From a virus: a stretch of DNA of 45,985 bases. Under the pieces are notes generated by a model. The model searched no databases. It saw nothing but the letters and a program-made list of their open reading frames with translations, and was not told the DNA's origin. Location: UHGV virus genome UHGV-0017783; one strand, 5' to 3'. Of this stretch, positions 17,176 through 23,722 are shown piece by piece (position 1 is the first letter of the stretch; each line of letters opens with the position of its first letter). The position numbers and the translations under genes were made by a program.

Positions 17176-18003
17176 ATGAGCTTATCAATGATTCAAAAAC
17201 CAAAACCAGCAGCACCAATCATAACATTGGTTGGCACTCCCGGGGTGGGTAAGACAACTCTTGCGGCGCTATTCCCAAATCCAGTGTTTATTCAGGCAGA
17301 AGAGATCACCGGTGTTTTTGATGACTGGGATGATGAAAAGAAACCAGATTCATTTCCTGTACTGAAGCGAGCTGATGCTAAACGCAAAACAAGCACAAAG
17401 GATGATTTGCTGTCACAGCTACGCGCATTAATTACTGAGGAACATAATTACAAAACGCTTGTGATTGATTCAATCACAAGCCTGCATTCAATGTTTGAGC
17501 ATGAGGTTTGTGAAAACTACGGTGTTGACAACGTTGGTTCTGCTGCTGGTGGTTACAACAAAGGATATATTGTTGTTTCTGAAATGCACGCTGAAATAAT
17601 AAATGCATGTAAGTATCTTCGCAAAGAAAAAGGGATGAGCATTATTTATCTTGCACACGCAGGTGTTAAAAAGATGAAGAATCGCCCTGATGCTGATGAA
17701 TACACTGTTTACACACTTGACATGCATGATGCTTCTGTTTCTGGTTATGTGAATCTTAGTGATGCTGTTATTTACATCAGAAATGAGGAGTTTGTGAAAG
17801 GTACTGAGACTGATAAAAAGGGTCAGGTAACTAAGTTTGGTAAGGTCGTCCAGACCGGTCAGCGAGTTCTTATCACATCTGGTGACGGTCGAGTTGGGTA
17901 TGTTAATGCAAAAAACAGATACAACCTTGAGCCTGAAATTCCTTTTGAAAAGGGTGAGAATCCACTTTTGAGTGAGATTAAGTATTATGCGAATCAAAAC
18001 TGA
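17176..18003 (+). CDS. Sak4-like AAA ATPase (RecA-fold recombination mediator)
   Basis: Walker A GTPGVGKTT, Walker B-like VIDSITSL; co-located with Gp157 and SSB. Confidence 0.7.
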   Translation: MSLSMIQKPKPAAPIITLVGTPGVGKTTLAALFPNPVFIQAEEITGVFDDWDDEKKPDSFPVLKRADAKRKTSTKDDLLSQLRALITEEHNYKTLVIDSITSLHSMFEHEVCENYGVDNVGSAAGGYNKGYIVVSEMHAEIINACKYLRKEKGMSIIYLAHAGVKKMKNRPDADEYTVYTLDMHDASVSGYVNLSDAVIYIRNEEFVKGTETDKKGQVTKFGKVVQTGQRVLITSGDGRVGYVNAKNRYNLEPEIPFEKGENPLLSEIKYYANQN

Positions 18004-18169
18004 TAACGGTAAGTATGAAACTGTAGTGAGTAATGGAAGGATTGAAATTTATCGCCATGGAGAGTTATGGCGCGACGAAACGGGAGATAACTATATATTG
18101 TCTCTTCTATTTAAAATTGATGAATTAGGTGGTGATGATGCATCTCTACGAGATAACCAAACAGCTTAA
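17987..18169 (+). CDS. hypothetical small protein overlapping Sak4 end and Gp157 start
   Basis: 60-aa ORF in alternate frame; weak SD; could be spurious. Confidence 0.25.
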   Translation: MRIKTDNGKYETVVSNGRIEIYRHGELWRDETGDNYILSLLFKIDELGGDDASLRDNQTA

Positions 18170-18617
18170 TGAACTGCTGGCGATGGAGGATATTCCACGG
18201 GAGCAGATTGAAGATACCATAAATCTTATTGAAGAGGAGTTTGAAGGAAAGGCTGAAATGGTTGCTGCTTACATTCGTGAGCTTGAAGCTGATGAAGCTG
18301 GACTTAAATCCGAGATTGACCGTCTTTCTGAGCGTAAGCGTGTTTTAGTTGCGAAGATTGATAACCTTAAAGGTTATCTTCTTCAAAACATGGTGGCGTC
18401 AGGAAAGACAAATATCAAAGGCAAGTTGTTCAGTATCACCATTGGAAAACCGTCACCAGTTCTTGATGTGTTTGTTCCTGTTGAGCGGCTTCCTGAGCAG
18501 TACCGAGTTGTGAAAGTGTCGGCAGATAATGCAGCAATTAAAAATGCGATAAAAGCCGGGATTGAAATTAAGGGTTGTGCCATCACCGACGGCAAACCAA
18601 AACTGATCATCAAATAA
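18135..18617 (+). CDS. Gp157-family protein (siphovirus Gp157, Sak4-associated)
   Basis: coiled-coil N-terminus and conserved C-terminal region typical of Gp157 proteins found with Sak4/SSB. Confidence 0.55.
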   Translation: MMHLYEITKQLNELLAMEDIPREQIEDTINLIEEEFEGKAEMVAAYIRELEADEAGLKSEIDRLSERKRVLVAKIDNLKGYLLQNMVASGKTNIKGKLFSITIGKPSPVLDVFVPVERLPEQYRVVKVSADNAAIKNAIKAGIEIKGCAITDGKPKLIIK

Positions 18618-18634
18618 ATCGAGAGGACACAAAA

Positions 18635-19156
18635 ATGGGTTTCTGGAATCTTTCTGACGGTAAAGCTGTTGAATCTAAATCTGAATTTGAACTGGGTGGT
18701 GGTTTTGAAGTAATTCCTGATGGTAGCCGTGTTCTTGCTGCCGTTGAAGAATGTAAAGACGACCAGTGGGAAGGTGAGCGATTCTTCAATCTTAAGTGGC
18801 GAATCCTTGATGGTGAGTATAAAAATCGCATCATCTTCCAGAAGCTGAAAGTATTTAGCTCAAAAGAAAAGCAGCGTGACAATGCTATCACTATGCTTGC
18901 AGCAATTGACGCAAACGCCGGTGGTAAGCTGATGGCATCAGGGAAAGAGCCGACTGATTTTGCTATTGCCAGCGCGCTTGCAAATCGCCCAATGATTCTT
19001 CTTCTGCGCGTTTGGGAATCTGAGGATAAGCAAAAAACTGGTAACTATGTGGCTGGTGTTTTCAGTCGTCAACAGACAAAAGCAGCGCCTGCTCCTAAGC
19101 AATCTGCACCGTCTAACGAGCCTCCGATGGACTTCGATTCAGACGTGCCATTTTGA
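18635..19156 (+). CDS. ssDNA-binding protein (DUF669-like) with SSB-type acidic C-terminal tail (..PPMDFDSDVPF)
   Basis: C-terminal DFDSDVPF resembles E. coli SSB tip DFDDDIPF; Gln/Pro-rich linker; position after Sak4/Gp157. Confidence 0.6.
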   Translation: MGFWNLSDGKAVESKSEFELGGGFEVIPDGSRVLAAVEECKDDQWEGERFFNLKWRILDGEYKNRIIFQKLKVFSSKEKQRDNAITMLAAIDANAGGKLMASGKEPTDFAIASALANRPMILLLRVWESEDKQKTGNYVAGVFSRQQTKAAPAPKQSAPSNEPPMDFDSDVPF

Positions 19157-19170
19157 TTTAGATTGGAATG

Positions 19171-19197
19171 ACAGGGCCATTCGTGGCCCTTTTTATT
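19171..19197 (+). terminator. rho-independent terminator after ssb
   Basis: agggccattcgtggccct + ttttatt. Confidence 0.6.
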
Positions 19198-19209
19198 CGA
19201 GAGGAAATT

Positions 19210-19398
19210 ATGAAAGAAAATAAAGAAAAATATGAAAAGTTCATGAGTTTTTCCGCGTGGAGAGAATTTGGTTTTACAGTAATAAAAGGTGAAAAATCAA
19301 GTTTTAGAAGTCCAGATGGTATTCCATTATTCAATGAGTCTCAGGTTACTGAGATAGATGATGATATTTTAGATCTAAATCATTGCGATTTATATTAG
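19210..19398 (+). CDS. hypothetical protein (62 aa)
   Basis: ATG with GAGAGGAAATT SD-like context. Confidence 0.35.
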   Translation: MKENKEKYEKFMSFSAWREFGFTVIKGEKSSFRSPDGIPLFNESQVTEIDDDILDLNHCDLY

Positions 19399-19408
19399 GA
19401 TTTGATTT

Positions 19409-21274
19409 ATGAAATATACGCTAAGGCCATACCAACAGGAAGCGGTTGACGCGGCTATGGCACACATTCGCAGCACCATCTCATCATGCGTTATCATCCT
19501 CCCGACAGGTGCAGGAAAATCTATGGTTGTGGCAGAACTTGCATCTCGTATTTATAGCATGAGCAAAAAGCGAGTTTTGTGCATTGCTCCCACAGCGGAA
19601 CTCGTCACACAAAATCGCGCTAAATACCTTCTTACCGGAGAACCAGCCAGCATGTTCAGCGCAAAGGCTGGACCAAAAAACCTGCGGCATCCGGTGGTGT
19701 TTGGCTCACCAGTTACAATCAAGAACTCAATAGAGATGTTTGGTGATAAGTATGGCGCTGTCATTATTGATGAATGTGATGGAATAACTCCAACCATTAA
19801 ATTTATTATTAATGAAATGAAGCGCCGCAATCCAAAACTGCGTGTTATTGGAATGACCGCTACGCCTTATCGCCTTGGAACTGGATACATCTACAAAGAG
19901 CATTACCTCGACGGTCCTACAGATGAAGAAACTGCCATTGACCCATATTATGATAAGGTTGTTTATGAGCTTGAGGCTAAATTCCTCATTGAAAACGGAT
20001 ACCTTACGCCGCCAGTCACAGAGCCTGTTGTTGATGAATATGATACGTCTTGTCTTGAAAAGGATAAGTTGGGTCGGTACACAACAGCTTCAGTTGAAAA
20101 GGCGATGGTTGGCAAGGGAAGGAAAACATCACGCATTGTTGAAGATATTATCCGTCGCTCTGTTAATCGGCGCGGAACGATGATTTTTGCCAGTACTAAG
20201 AAACACGCTATGGAGATAATGGAGTCACTTCCTCCCGGTTCTTATAGTTATGTTTTTGGTGATATGCCGACAGCTGAACGCAATAAGGCAATATCAGACT
20301 TCAAGGCGCAAAAAGTTAAATACATCGTCAATCAGAATATCCTTACTGTAGGGGTTGATGTCCCTCATTGTGATCACATAGCAGTAATGAGAGCCACAGA
20401 ATCACCAAGACTCTACCAGCAAATAATTGGCAGGGGGACGCGTCTTTATGAAGGAAAGGAAGACTTTCTTGTCAGCGATTACGCAGGCAACATTCAGCGC
20501 CACTTTTCTGAGACTGGGGACTTGTTCACTCCAGAAATAAAAGCAACAAGGAAAAAACCATCCGTGCCAATGGATGTCAAATGCCCTCTTTGTGGCTTTA
20601 TCAATGAATTTGGCGTGCGCCCAAACCCGGAAAATCTGGAAGTTGACAAGGAAGGTTACTGGCTTGATTTGGCTGGTGACAGGGTGATGATTGATATTTT
20701 TGATAAATCAGGTGAAAAAATTGGAAGCAAGCCTATGCCTGCCCATTTTGGGAGGAGGTGTAAAAACTACGTTATGCACGGCCCATTAAGGGAAATGCAC
20801 AGGTGTACTTATAAGTGGTCGGTGAAAGAGTGTCCTGATTGTGGATTTGAAAATGATATAGCGGCAAGAAACTGCACATCATGCGGCGCTGAAATCATTG
20901 ATCCAAACCAAAAGCTAAGGGAAGAAGCTGACAGGCTTGATTCTTCTCCTTATGCAACAAAGCAATCAAGCGTAACCATGATGAACATCATGAAGCATTA
21001 CGTTTCAAGTGGTGAAGATTTGGTGCACGTAAAATTTGCTATTGACCAGAAGCCATTTTTTGTTAGCAAGTTCTACAATCCAAACTCTGAAAAGGAATGG
21101 ATGAAGAAGGAGTGGGAAGAGTTTTGCGGGAAGTGCTTTGGTGAATCTGACATGTCAATTGAGGATGCAATAGCAAGAAGAGATGAAGCTGTCGCGCCAT
21201 CAGTGATTATGTTCAGAAGAGACAAAGGTAGTAAATATTTCAACGTTAAAGGCATGTATTGGGGGGTATTATGA
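19409..21274 (+). CDS. SF2 (DEAD/DExH-like) helicase with C-terminal Zn-ribbon motifs
   Basis: motif I PTGAGKS, motif II DECD, motif III TATP, motif VI QIIGRGTR; C-terminal CPLCG / CPDCG / CTSCG ribbons. Confidence 0.75.
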   Translation: MKYTLRPYQQEAVDAAMAHIRSTISSCVIILPTGAGKSMVVAELASRIYSMSKKRVLCIAPTAELVTQNRAKYLLTGEPASMFSAKAGPKNLRHPVVFGSPVTIKNSIEMFGDKYGAVIIDECDGITPTIKFIINEMKRRNPKLRVIGMTATPYRLGTGYIYKEHYLDGPTDEETAIDPYYDKVVYELEAKFLIENGYLTPPVTEPVVDEYDTSCLEKDKLGRYTTASVEKAMVGKGRKTSRIVEDIIRRSVNRRGTMIFASTKKHAMEIMESLPPGSYSYVFGDMPTAERNKAISDFKAQKVKYIVNQNILTVGVDVPHCDHIAVMRATESPRLYQQIIGRGTRLYEGKEDFLVSDYAGNIQRHFSETGDLFTPEIKATRKKPSVPMDVKCPLCGFINEFGVRPNPENLEVDKEGYWLDLAGDRVMIDIFDKSGEKIGSKPMPAHFGRRCKNYVMHGPLREMHRCTYKWSVKECPDCGFENDIAARNCTSCGAEIIDPNQKLREEADRLDSSPYATKQSSVTMMNIMKHYVSSGEDLVHVKFAIDQKPFFVSKFYNPNSEKEWMKKEWEEFCGKCFGESDMSIEDAIARRDEAVAPSVIMFRRDKGSKYFNVKGMYWGVL

Positions 21275-21726
21275 TTTTTCCAGAAGGCATTAAGGTGTAT
21301 GGAAATTTAGATTACAGAAACAAAAAGTGCCCGTCAGAAGATGCTGAACTGGAGACTTTTGTGAATCAGGTAAGGAGGCTATATCCTGACTTTGCAAGAG
21401 TTATGATTCATGTGCCAAATGAAGGAAAGCGTAAAGGGTATGAAGTTGAAAATCTGAAGAAAAAAGGTGCGCTAAACTTCGGGGCGTCAGACATCATTAT
21501 CATCGGAAAGCAATCATTCGTTATGGAGATGAAGAGAATGGATCATACTTTATCAAAATGGCAGCCCGGTCAAATGGCATACTTAAAAGTGGCGAAAGAA
21601 TTAGAATCATTCGCGTGTGTATGTCTAGGCTGGGAAGCAGCGATGATGGCATTTAACGACTGGAGAGCAATAAATTACCCAAACTATAAAAAACCATCAG
21701 AGCCATTGATATTTGATGGTTTTTAG
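21271..21726 (+). CDS. VRR-NUC domain nuclease
   Basis: PD-(D/E)xK-type residues (GASD..EMK) in ~150-aa protein; start overlaps helicase stop (ATGA). Confidence 0.55.
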   Translation: MIFPEGIKVYGNLDYRNKKCPSEDAELETFVNQVRRLYPDFARVMIHVPNEGKRKGYEVENLKKKGALNFGASDIIIIGKQSFVMEMKRMDHTLSKWQPGQMAYLKVAKELESFACVCLGWEAAMMAFNDWRAINYPNYKKPSEPLIFDGF

Positions 21727-21843
21727 CAACCACTCCAGCGACCAAAACAACAACCTCAACGACAACAGCAGCCACCAAAACAACAAATCCCACAAGGAGG
21801 TAATGAGCCTCCGATGGACTTCGATGACTCAATACCATTCTGA
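21727..21843 (+). other. in-frame post-amber extension encoding SSB-like linker + acidic tail (..QQPPKQQIPQGGNEPPMDFDDSIPF*)
   Basis: 38 sense codons in the VRR-NUC frame directly after TAG(C); 21-nt identity (gagcctccgatggacttcgat) with 3' end of ssb gene. Confidence 0.4.
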
Positions 21844-21849
21844 TGATAA

Positions 21850-21880
21850 AACTAACCCCGCCGAAGCGGGGTTTTCTCTT
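21850..21880. terminator. bidirectional terminator between replication module and tailspike gene
   Basis: aaccccgccgaagcggggtt + ttctctt. Confidence 0.55.
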
Positions 21881-21883
21881 ACA

Positions 21884-23722
21884 TTAAGCTGAAATATTAC
21901 CAGCAACCTTCCACACACCAGAACCCATATAAATCCATTTATATGGTTGCCCAGCAACGGGGGTTAATAGCTCCCATCGCGCACCATTGCCGAATTGGGT
22001 GACTGAAGAATCAGGGGGAACATCCCCGTATACATGCGCAATGCCGTTGATTTTGTAACCAGTAGATGTCCATGTGTCCGTACCCCAGATTGTATAATTA
22101 CCTCCCCAGTCTGAGTAGTTAAACTGCGAAACAGTTGCTGCCCACAGTACACGGGAAGCTGCCGGTGCAACGGTATTAATCAGGTTAATGGTAGTGTCAT
22201 TAACTTGCCAGTACTTGCTAGTAGGTGAACCAGCAAACTCCGGCAGGTAGCTGCCAGTAATGGTGACTGCGCATTGTGTAAATATGCAAGCGATGAAACC
22301 GTTATCAGTAATATTCACCCCACGGAACCCATTAATAACCATTCTTGACTGATTACACTCAAAGAAACTTCCGTGTATTTCTTCGGCCCCACAACCATCC
22401 ATCACTACACTAGTACACCCTAAGAATACATAAGCGGAACCAGTTACATAATCCGTTGCACAACCTTTAAGAGTGGAATAAGTAATATTAGTAAACTTAT
22501 ATGCCCAACGGGATACGTTCCTGACATAAACATTATTTAAGTTAAAAGTTGTACCGCCAGTATCTACAGAAATACCATCTTGAACATCTTTAATGAGAAG
22601 TGAATCAAACACCTGAAGCCAGCTATCACTTGTTCGATACCCTGTCATCACGTTTTCTATATACAGGTCTTCTAATCGAACCATGTAACTAATCGCGCTA
22701 TAGATGCCATAGGCATTTTTCGCGGTAGCAGCTCCAATTAAGCTCATCCCGGATATAGCGCCAGAACGACTAAAGTTACCGGTTAAATCCCCAGCCTCAC
22801 TGGAATCCATATCTATAGCGGCGATGAAATCAAGAGAAAAACTGTGCGGAGCACCCTGCCATATACGGTCAGGAACTGTTTTAATATCGTTGCCTGTTTT
22901 GCGTAAGCCGCATGAGTCCCTACCAATCCCCTCCCACATGACGCGGGGCGGGCATATAGCTCCATACTTAATATCATAAAAATCTGAAAATCTTAATTTA
23001 CCTCCAGTCTGTGGAAGGCAAGAATGAATACGCTCAAGAGCTTCACTGTTTTGCTCAGCTGTACGAGATGCCATCACGCCGCCGTTCTCTACAGGGATAT
23101 CGATATGGCTTCCTGCTCTCTTCCAGCGCTTACCGCCTGGGGTAACAAAAATATTCACGCCGTCATCTGCCTCAGAACTGGAAAATGCTATAAACGTTCC
23201 TCCACCAAGCCCGGGTGTATCAGAGTAGTATCCGCGAACAGTTATATTTTGCCCGACAAATGATGGCTCAATTGTTCTGAGTGTAGAAATGTCAGGACAT
23301 ACTCCGATATATTTTTCTCCGTCAGTCTTGATTAAGTCAGATCTAAGCGAAGCATCACCAACACTCAACCACGCACCTAACCCAATTCCTCCAGAGGTTT
23401 CTGGTGTAGAGCCAGAAGCTGCTGTTTTAGGAAATTCCCCATCCCAGCGATAATATTCTCCAGTTGCCTCATAACGCAAAACCTGATTAGGTAGCGTCAG
23501 TGTTGCACCATCTTCGAAGCTGTCCATCGTAATGTAGCCATAATTACGGATAGCTTCTTCTGCGGTGTACTGAAATCCAGCAATTGTCCATCGGCGAACA
23601 CCGAAGCGATCGGTGTAGTAATGCGCATCAGATGTCACTACCTCGTCAATCTTCCCGGCATTAAATTTCAGGTCGCGCGGGTCTTCTGACGGGATTGGTT
23701 TATTAGTTGGTGTGGTAGCCAT
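21884..23722 (-). CDS. tailspike/tail fiber with beta-helix (pectate-lyase-like, putative polysaccharide depolymerase) domain
   Basis: 612 aa; N-terminal virion-attachment region, central repetitive beta-helix-like G/N/T-rich segments, last gene of tail operon. Confidence 0.6.
   Translation of the reverse strand: MATTPTNKPIPSEDPRDLKFNAGKIDEVVTSDAHYYTDRFGVRRWTIAGFQYTAEEAIRNYGYITMDSFEDGATLTLPNQVLRYEATGEYYRWDGEFPKTAASGSTPETSGGIGLGAWLSVGDASLRSDLIKTDGEKYIGVCPDISTLRTIEPSFVGQNITVRGYYSDTPGLGGGTFIAFSSSEADDGVNIFVTPGGKRWKRAGSHIDIPVENGGVMASRTAEQNSEALERIHSCLPQTGGKLRFSDFYDIKYGAICPPRVMWEGIGRDSCGLRKTGNDIKTVPDRIWQGAPHSFSLDFIAAIDMDSSEAGDLTGNFSRSGAISGMSLIGAATAKNAYGIYSAISYMVRLEDLYIENVMTGYRTSDSWLQVFDSLLIKDVQDGISVDTGGTTFNLNNVYVRNVSRWAYKFTNITYSTLKGCATDYVTGSAYVFLGCTSVVMDGCGAEEIHGSFFECNQSRMVINGFRGVNITDNGFIACIFTQCAVTITGSYLPEFAGSPTSKYWQVNDTTINLINTVAPAASRVLWAATVSQFNYSDWGGNYTIWGTDTWTSTGYKINGIAHVYGDVPPDSSVTQFGNGARWELLTPVAGQPYKWIYMGSGVWKVAGNISA

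Follow-up and report, generated by a model that had tools for sequence, protein, structure and literature searches.

The 45,985-nucleotide (nt) stretch of DNA analysed here (virus genome UHGV-0017783; the window) carries, directly behind the stop codon of a nuclease gene of the VRR-NUC type, a short segment that reads as the C-terminus of a single-stranded DNA-binding protein (SSB). The nuclease open reading frame (ORF), 21271-21726, closes with GAT GGT TTT TAG (TAG at 21724-21726), and the next base is C. Beyond this stop, frame 0 contains 38 sense codons (21727-21840, translated as QPLQRPKQQPQRQQQPPKQQIPQGGNEPPMDFDDSIPF) and is closed by TGA at 21841-21843, followed by TGA TAA. The translation of 21727-21843 contains both parts of a canonical SSB C-terminus, a disordered Gln/Pro/Gly linker and an acidic tip of the DFDD[DS]IPF-COOH type, here ..NEPPMDFDDSIPF directly before the stop. 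The segment has neither an oligonucleotide-binding (OB) fold nor a start codon of its own. Only the last 38 SSB codons are present, and the gene upstream is that of the nuclease.

An earlier note on this DNA had described the GGT TTT TAG C end, the 38 in-frame sense codons and the SSB-type tip, all of which we confirm on the sequence. It offered two explanations: amber read-through, which would give a nuclease with an SSB tail, or a recent 3'-end duplication or pseudo-fusion, with the ssb gene 2.6 kb upstream as its source. Our analysis leads to a different origin. The segment 21727-21843 is very probably a non-functional remnant of an SSB gene at a mosaic junction, overwritten by exchange of the tailspike cassette, and its frame match with the nuclease is incidental.

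The source of the segment can be seen in related phages. A megablast search of the region against 50,697 phage records gave two sets of matches. Those of the nuclease part are confined to a few 46-47 kb siphoviruses (Sa179lw, Sf11, ECO111 5-P and YX3973). Those of positions 21725-21875 fall on the 3' ends of SSB genes annotated in many Akira- and Jersey-like Salmonella and Escherichia phages (in distant mode 267 records, with at least 80% of the query covered in 85). A blastn match of the tail to the 3' end of the SSB gene of phage Akira has E=2e-51, which indicates true homology and not a chance motif. Over 149 nt, 21727-21875 is 90.6% identical to the last 117 nt and terminator of this canonical PF00436 gene, and the identities to functional PF00436 SSB 3' ends of other phages, terminator included, are 85-91% over the same length.

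Akira- and Jersey-like relatives have this SSB gene at precisely the place of the segment. In Akira, the early region ends with genes for an exonuclease, a hypothetical protein, a recombinase and SSB, and the tail fibre gene converges from the other side. The intact Akira SSB has 161 amino acids (aa) and matches PF00436 with E=6e-38. At that position, the window and its four closest relatives carry a Sak4-like ATPase, Gp157, a DUF669-type SSB, a helicase, the nuclease, the fragment and the tailspike gene; the synteny of the replacing module was read in Sf11, Sa179lw and YX3973 against Akira. In the alignment, the base that follows the nuclease stop is the first at which the sequence resembles the Akira SSB gene, and the similarity runs gap-free through the SSB stop codons and the terminator. 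The blastn query starts lie at 1-6 in all lineages, placing the similarity boundary at the nuclease stop. An SSB gene that is intact at the syntenic position in Akira and an abrupt boundary of similarity are what a remnant at a mosaic junction displays. The alignments identify the fragment as the 3' end of a canonical PF00436 SSB gene, still at its ancestral position.

To survey the junction in relatives, contigs with nuclease homologues were taken from GenBank, IMG/VR, Logan and ENA, and the sequence after the stop was read in each. Class A comprises 13 distinct versions, in which a nuclease ending ..PLIFDGF is followed by a stop and about 38 codons in frame. The stop is TAG in 11 of these versions and TAA in two (Sf11 and Sa179lw). 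In the six contigs of class B, the nuclease is about 65% identical and ends ..SIQIDSF, followed by TGA, AT[G/T] and 22-24 codons in frame; this tail derives from a different SSB subtype (..KPQQPSNTSKPPANEPPMDFDDDIPF). Class C (L010) has a 15-codon remnant that is out of frame, in frame +1. The stop in classes B and C is TGA-A. In three further contigs (L006, L011 and L012) no remnant is present and the nuclease stop is followed directly by the terminator. None of more than 70 more distant nuclease homologues has a tail. A scan of IMG/VR for further junction variants returned the six known contigs and no new one, and a scan of JGI metagenomes for the junction pattern found nothing.

Several versions are disrupted. 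The remnant of L186 (..QPQG(stop)WGANPQQQ..) contains an in-frame TGA where functional genes read ..QGGWGTNP.., and that of L187 (..KQQSPQ(stop)GNEPP..) has an in-frame TGA in place of GGA (Gly). At both positions the other versions have a Gly codon. In the remnant version found in L185, L191, L192 and L194, the IPF tip is changed to ISF. The internal TGA codons and the ISF change are signatures of a pseudogene, and decayed copies are also found outside this group of phages (phi G17 and phiHAO78-1, described below).

These data bear on functional read-through of the TAG, by which the VRR-NUC nuclease would acquire an SSB tip and dock with it onto proteins that bind SSB, or onto Sak4 or the helicase of this phage. 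An SSB tip is known to be important to Sak4-type recombinases: in HK620, stimulation of Sak4 depends on the six C-terminal residues of SSB (PMC5928155). The extension in the window is in frame and open to an intact tip. Two of the three junction classes are in frame, but this is not beyond chance, since the probability that at least two of three would be is about 0.26. The stop and its context are not conserved: TAG, TAA and TGA-A all occur among the classes, including TAA, the tightest stop, and in no relative is the TAG replaced by a sense codon. Nor is the extension open and in frame throughout. It is interrupted in L186 and L187, which lie beside identical nucleases, frame-shifted in L010 and absent from L006, L011 and L012, and one version has lost IPF.

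A search of the 190-aa read-through product against 5.8 billion proteins returned no fused protein. It found 57 nuclease homologues of 119-152 aa, none of them fused or with a sense codon at the stop, and, separately, PF00436 SSBs that match the tail alone. The members that were read from the 341-member cluster of the window nuclease all have at most 151 aa. The window encodes no tRNA, and hence no suppressor tRNA, according to a tRNA search. The weak stop context stressed by the earlier note, TAG with C at +4, is present but does not set this gene apart: TAG closes seven of the 51 long ORFs of the window and TAG-C four, the nuclease gene and three others, so TAG-C is no special stop here. The comparison of relatives thus shows that the nuclease ends at its native stop and that the type of stop, the frame and the integrity of the extension are not conserved.

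The low ratio of nonsynonymous to synonymous divergence (dN/dS) within the remnants is a further point that read-through could claim. Third codon positions account for 20 of the 37 variable remnant sites. However, synonymous divergence (dS) of the remnants is 0.32-1.9, compared with 0.08-0.48 for the nuclease and 0.18-0.41 for the helicase in the same genome pairs, an excess of about threefold. The change is abrupt: relative to Sa179lw, L016 and L018 have two differences in the last 150 nt of the nuclease gene and 13-18 in the next 117 nt. At 20 of the 37 polymorphic sites both alleles are also found in functional SSB genes, and for every remnant there is a functional SSB 3' end that resembles it at least as closely as the other remnants do. 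The Sa179lw remnant and the functional SSB gene of L102 share rare CAG and CTA (Leu) codons. The class B remnant of L019 and the functional SSB gene of L137 share a 6-nt deletion (PPMDDDIPF) and the type of terminator. A comparison of singletons has no power (synonymous to nonsynonymous 3:11 in remnants, 4:12 in functional genes).

The decisive result in favour of import comes from contigs whose nuclease genes are 0-1 of 453 nt apart. They carry six different remnant versions, which differ from one another at 11-65 of 114 positions (duplicate contigs excepted), and each is linked to a different terminator and tailspike. Given the dS excess, the polymorphism pool shared with functional genes and the identical nucleases beside different remnants, the protein-like pattern of the remnant is best attributed to import and not to evolution in place. 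Low dN/dS as a sign of selection was rejected after the dS comparison and the finding of disrupted remnants beside identical nucleases. We consider functional read-through very unlikely, and by the refuting condition that the earlier note itself set, this part of it does not stand. In supE hosts, some ribosomes are expected to pass the stop of the TAG allele, and in sup0 hosts this should be rare; nothing suggests that the product is selected.

The hairpin that follows the remnant has an 8-bp stem with six GC pairs and a folding energy of -15.3 kcal/mol (z = -3.6). With a GC-rich hairpin and a T-run on both strands, it scores as a terminator in either direction. It is identical in Akira, Sf11 and ECO111, and also in L006 and L011, which have no remnant. 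The N-terminal ~400 nt of the tailspike gene are 85-89% identical to those of many 45-48 kb Jersey-like siphoviruses, including ones with a functional SSB gene. The nearest relatives of the receptor-binding part, at 79% nt identity, are tail proteins of 157-kb Kuttervirus (Ackermannviridae) Salmonella phages, and this part is in all likelihood the product of a cross-family cassette transfer. Among 16 nuclease-bearing loci, the 3' part of the tailspike gene is common to two near-duplicate pairs only. Because the tailspike 3' parts are otherwise unrelated, breakpoints lie between the nuclease stop and the tailspike 3' end, within the remnant and terminator, in essentially every lineage.

Orphan copies of the SSB end, about 100 nt long and with the same terminator, are located directly 3' of tailspike-type genes in other phages (Table 1). 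Their position indicates that the fragment travels with tailspike genes. Two of the three are decayed, and the fragment would decay where no SSB-carrying relatives can refresh it.

Table 1. Features of the junction and its surroundings. Positions refer to the window unless a contig is named.
Feature	Position	Strand	Remarks
Sak4-like AAA_24 ATPase, Gp157, DUF669 SSB, small ORF, DEAD/ResIII helicase	17176..21274	+	Pfam matches; synteny compared with Akira
Resident DUF669-type SSB	18635..19156	+	Pfam DUF669, phrog_9002; own tip ..SNEPPMDFDSDVPF
VRR-NUC-fold nuclease gene, complete, 151 aa	21271..21726	+	ATG overlaps helicase stop (ATGA); native stop TAG; homologues start MIFPE
Probable SSB gene remnant, last 38 codons and stop	21727..21843	+	Closely matches Akira SSB 3' end
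Two extra stop codons (TGA TAA) from SSB gene end	21844..21849	+	TGATGATAA string also 3' of functional SSB genes
Bidirectional intrinsic-terminator hairpin (predicted)	21854..21873	both	Between converging early and tailspike transcription units
Tailspike gene	21884..23722	-	Receptor-binding part ~21900-23277 swapped; N-terminal anchor ~23349-23722 conserved in Jersey-like phages
Orphan copy, PBM-3 (N4-like Gamaleyavirus)	L013 2501-2601		Tip intact
Orphan copy, phi G17 (N4-like)	L014 2501-2598		Decayed, PPMGFSDDIPL
Orphan copy, phiHAO78-1 (44-kb phage)	L015 92-194		Decayed, PPVDFADSIPF

These observations can be combined in the following scenario. An Akira-type exonuclease-recombinase-SSB module would have been replaced by one that encodes Sak4, Gp157, the DUF669-type SSB, the helicase and the VRR-NUC nuclease. 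The right-hand, illegitimate joint would lie within the SSB linker, with the intact nuclease stop immediately before it; its position can be read from the alignment, and the event itself we infer. The remaining SSB end and terminator retain their homology to the functional SSB genes of co-circulating phages, and they lie at the left edge of a receptor-binding cassette that changes hands very often. In homologous exchange, the left arm would be provided by the remnant or terminator and the right arm by the sequence for the tailspike N-terminal domain, and donor sequence would replace the remnant wholly or in part each time. Recombinases of the single-strand annealing type, such as Sak4, are tolerant of homology that is short and diverged (PMC5499656).

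That the remnant has been replaced together with the terminator and the tailspike is shown by the contigs with near-identical nucleases. Overwriting by exchange with donors is suggested by the jumps in divergence, the shared polymorphisms and the linked terminator types. The remnant would look conserved at the protein level because selection acted in the real SSB genes of the donors. Any extended product, for example in supE hosts, would be a by-product.

Some observations weigh against the interpretation as an overwritten remnant. Pairwise dN/dS within class A remnants is 0.02-0.33 in the frame shared by SSB and nuclease; low values are also what selection in place would produce, and ~115 nt cannot formally separate the two. 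The frame is open from the nuclease stop to an intact tip in 11 of 13 class A versions and in all six class B contigs, and all length differences between remnants are multiples of three. In a search for a functional SSB end continuous with the tailspike of the window, none of 80 SSB loci shared tailspike sequence. With no donor that combines this tailspike and the exact SSB end, co-transfer is indirectly deduced. Finally, in each of the three junction classes no more than 0-3 nt separate the nuclease stop from the SSB sequence, a regularity for which the interpretation as a remnant does not account. Classes A, B and C all begin near a CAACCA/CAACAA motif, which is weak evidence of one ancient joint given the low-complexity linker.

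It is also conceivable that the remnant is translated alone, and that the resulting small, free peptide with an SSB tip competes for the partners of host SSB. Translation would start in class B by re-initiation at the ATG after the TGA, and in class A at the internal ATG of ..PPMDF.., which is preceded by GGAGG. Five of the six class B contigs (L007-L009, L019 and L020) have TGAATG and an ORF of 22-24 codons, MKPSNTSKPPANEPPMDFDDDIPF, ending ..PPMDFDDDIPF, and the window has GGAGG 13 nt before the ATG at 21814. However, the sixth contig, L021, has ATT instead of ATG, and the GGAGG...ATG arrangement is the coding sequence of GGNEPPM, present in functional SSB genes too. No gene is called there in public assemblies. 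The ISF change and the decay of the phi G17 type indicate that the tip is not protected; the internal stops of L186 and L187 lie upstream of the ATG and are no test of this possibility. SSB-tip peptides bind with micromolar affinities, so high expression would be needed, which also counts against it. We judge a free peptide very improbable, and the class B TGAATG ORF is more likely incidental than a micropeptide gene.

The resident SSB gene of the window differs in type from the source of the remnant. Its product matches Pfam DUF669 (E=7e-6) and phrog_9002, 'single strand DNA binding protein' (E=8.5e-70). It has no OB-fold Pfam match, yet it ends in a canonical bacterial SSB tip. The earlier note had reported a 21-nt identity between its 3' end and the segment behind the nuclease, and this identity is exact: GAGCCTCCGATGGACTTCGAT occurs at 19118-19138 and 21805-21825, encodes EPPMDFD, and was not matched twice in any of 100 shuffles. 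Recent duplication of the resident ssb 3' end to a site downstream of the nuclease, which this identity would favour, is refuted by the alignments and has practically no probability: outside the 21 nt the two ends are unrelated, with 36 of the last 60 nt matching and different linkers, and the resident gene is of the DUF669 type, whereas the remnant aligns through the terminator with PF00436 SSB genes. The earlier suggestion of a pseudo-fusion is therefore retained, with the PF00436 SSB gene of relatives as its source in place of the phage's own ssb. The shared EPPMDFD codons hint at past exchange, or at convergence of tips between unrelated SSB families. Frameshifting by -1 or +1 at GGTTTTTAG was rejected because the tail is in the zero frame.

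A more tentative extension of the remnant interpretation is that the SSB 3' end and terminator (~150 nt) are retained as a portable homology arm for acquiring tailspikes from SSB-carrying Jersey-like phages. We regard this as possible but doubtful. If true, it would mean that the segment is carried with tailspike genes into unrelated families such as the N4-like Gamaleyavirus.

The nuclease gene itself is complete. Its product has no Pfam match at E<=0.01, the PF08774 sequence model included; a profile search of PDB sequences gave nothing credible, and the only PHROG match, phrog_824, is to a family of unknown function. With 28 homologues as input, AlphaFold gave a model with a predicted local distance difference test (pLDDT) score of 85.5. 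The top Foldseek matches of this model in the PDB are 4qbl and 4qbo, 'VRR_NUC domain', with probabilities of 1.00 and 0.97 and template-modelling (TM) scores of 0.63/0.76. The PD-(D/E)xK catalytic residues D74, E86 and K88 are invariant in the 28 homologues. The VRR-NUC assignment made in the earlier note is supported, in that the model points to this fold; the support comes from the fold match of the model and not from a sequence profile. The study of 4qbl and 4qbo found that standalone VRR-Nuc proteins resemble Holliday-junction resolvases (PMC4103454). Members of the nuclease sub-clade all end ..xF-COOH at one common alignment column, and since the end of the window protein falls at this column, the protein is, to judge from the alignment, complete and ends at its native stop.

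The sub-clade nucleases have a disordered C-terminal tail of their own (window 21676-21723, residues ~136-151, pLDDT 51-68), which ends in a hydrophobic/acidic motif and a terminal Phe: PLIFDGF, PIDIESF, PVIIDNF, SIQIDSF or PKIIEDF. More distant homologues are without this tail. The motif may itself work in docking, as SSB tips or clamp-binding peptides do, and this could be why the stop after Phe is always kept. In Escherichia phage ECO95 1-6-1 (L006 3995-4030), a position of the nuclease gene that encodes Glu in the homologue P0015 is occupied by an in-frame TAG. This TAG lies 11 codons before the native end, and the downstream PSSPITISHF, with its stop, is intact. The same in-frame TAG is found in Salmonella phage S.Kent 1-2-1. 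It could be either a recent nonsense mutation or a second case of an amber codon followed by an open frame. It shows that propagation does not require the C-terminal tail of the nuclease.

Two further observations concern the neighbouring sequence. The helicase upstream of the nuclease has 621 aa in the window and is ~320-350 aa longer in some relatives (968 aa in L190 1-704, an ENA contig; 941 aa in L005 750-3575, YX3973). The L190 product matches Hom_end_hint, LAGLIDADG and Hom_end, which suggests that the insert, absent from the window, is an intein with a homing endonuclease. A 59-codon ORF on the plus strand, 21713-21892, spans the nuclease end, the remnant and the terminator in another frame. 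Its equivalent is annotated as a hypothetical protein, gp12, in Sf11 (L002 5517-5699). Because it extends across the terminator in this other frame, the ORF is probably spurious.

Gene remnants at module boundaries are known from the mosaic genomes of lambdoid and other tailed phages. The segment resembles them in that the truncated gene is intact in relatives, the boundary is abrupt, the joint lies outside the intact gene and some copies are disabled. It differs in that it appears to be repeatedly refreshed from functional donors, so that it keeps a protein-like substitution pattern, and in that it happens to be in frame with an upstream stop. Exchange of tailspike cassettes behind a conserved N-terminal anchor is known for P22-like, Jersey-like and Kuttervirus tailspikes. 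Here too close relatives keep the N-terminal ~400 nt and have receptor-binding parts that are unrelated to one another. The flank conserved on the other side is unlike those systems: it consists of an SSB 3' end and terminator, persists without the SSB gene and is also found beside tailspike genes of N4-like podoviruses.

In the UGA read-through of the Q-beta coat protein into A1, the extension is essential, and it is conserved together with the type and context of the stop. The window shares with it a stop codon followed by an in-frame open extension, but among relatives the stop is of more than one type, and there are copies in which the extension is interrupted, out of frame or missing. The tip NEPPMDFDDSIPF is of the canonical SSB docking type (..DFDDDIPF-COOH), and the tip of the resident DUF669-type SSB is similar. 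Unlike the tips of phage SSBs that work with Sak4 (PMC5928155), that of the remnant lies behind a stop, without a DNA-binding domain or a start.

Scars of this kind are ordinary in mosaic phage genomes, and the exchange of receptor-binding cassettes, with which this one is combined, is well known. What appears to be new is that the conserved left flank of the cassette is the end of an SSB gene, and that this flank is kept after the SSB gene has been lost and extends to phages of unrelated families. The case also carries a caution: an in-frame extension with low dN/dS behind a weak stop can arise wholly by recombination with functional genes. Before recoding is invoked, the type of stop, the frame, nonsense mutations and the synonymous divergence relative to flanking genes should be compared among relatives. 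When such phages are propagated on supE K-12 strains, a fusion of the nuclease and the SSB tip is to be expected. Our results place the left boundary of the tailspike exchange within ~150 nt in siphoviruses of E. coli, Shigella, Salmonella and Klebsiella that are used for biocontrol, and the location of this boundary would be useful for host-range engineering.

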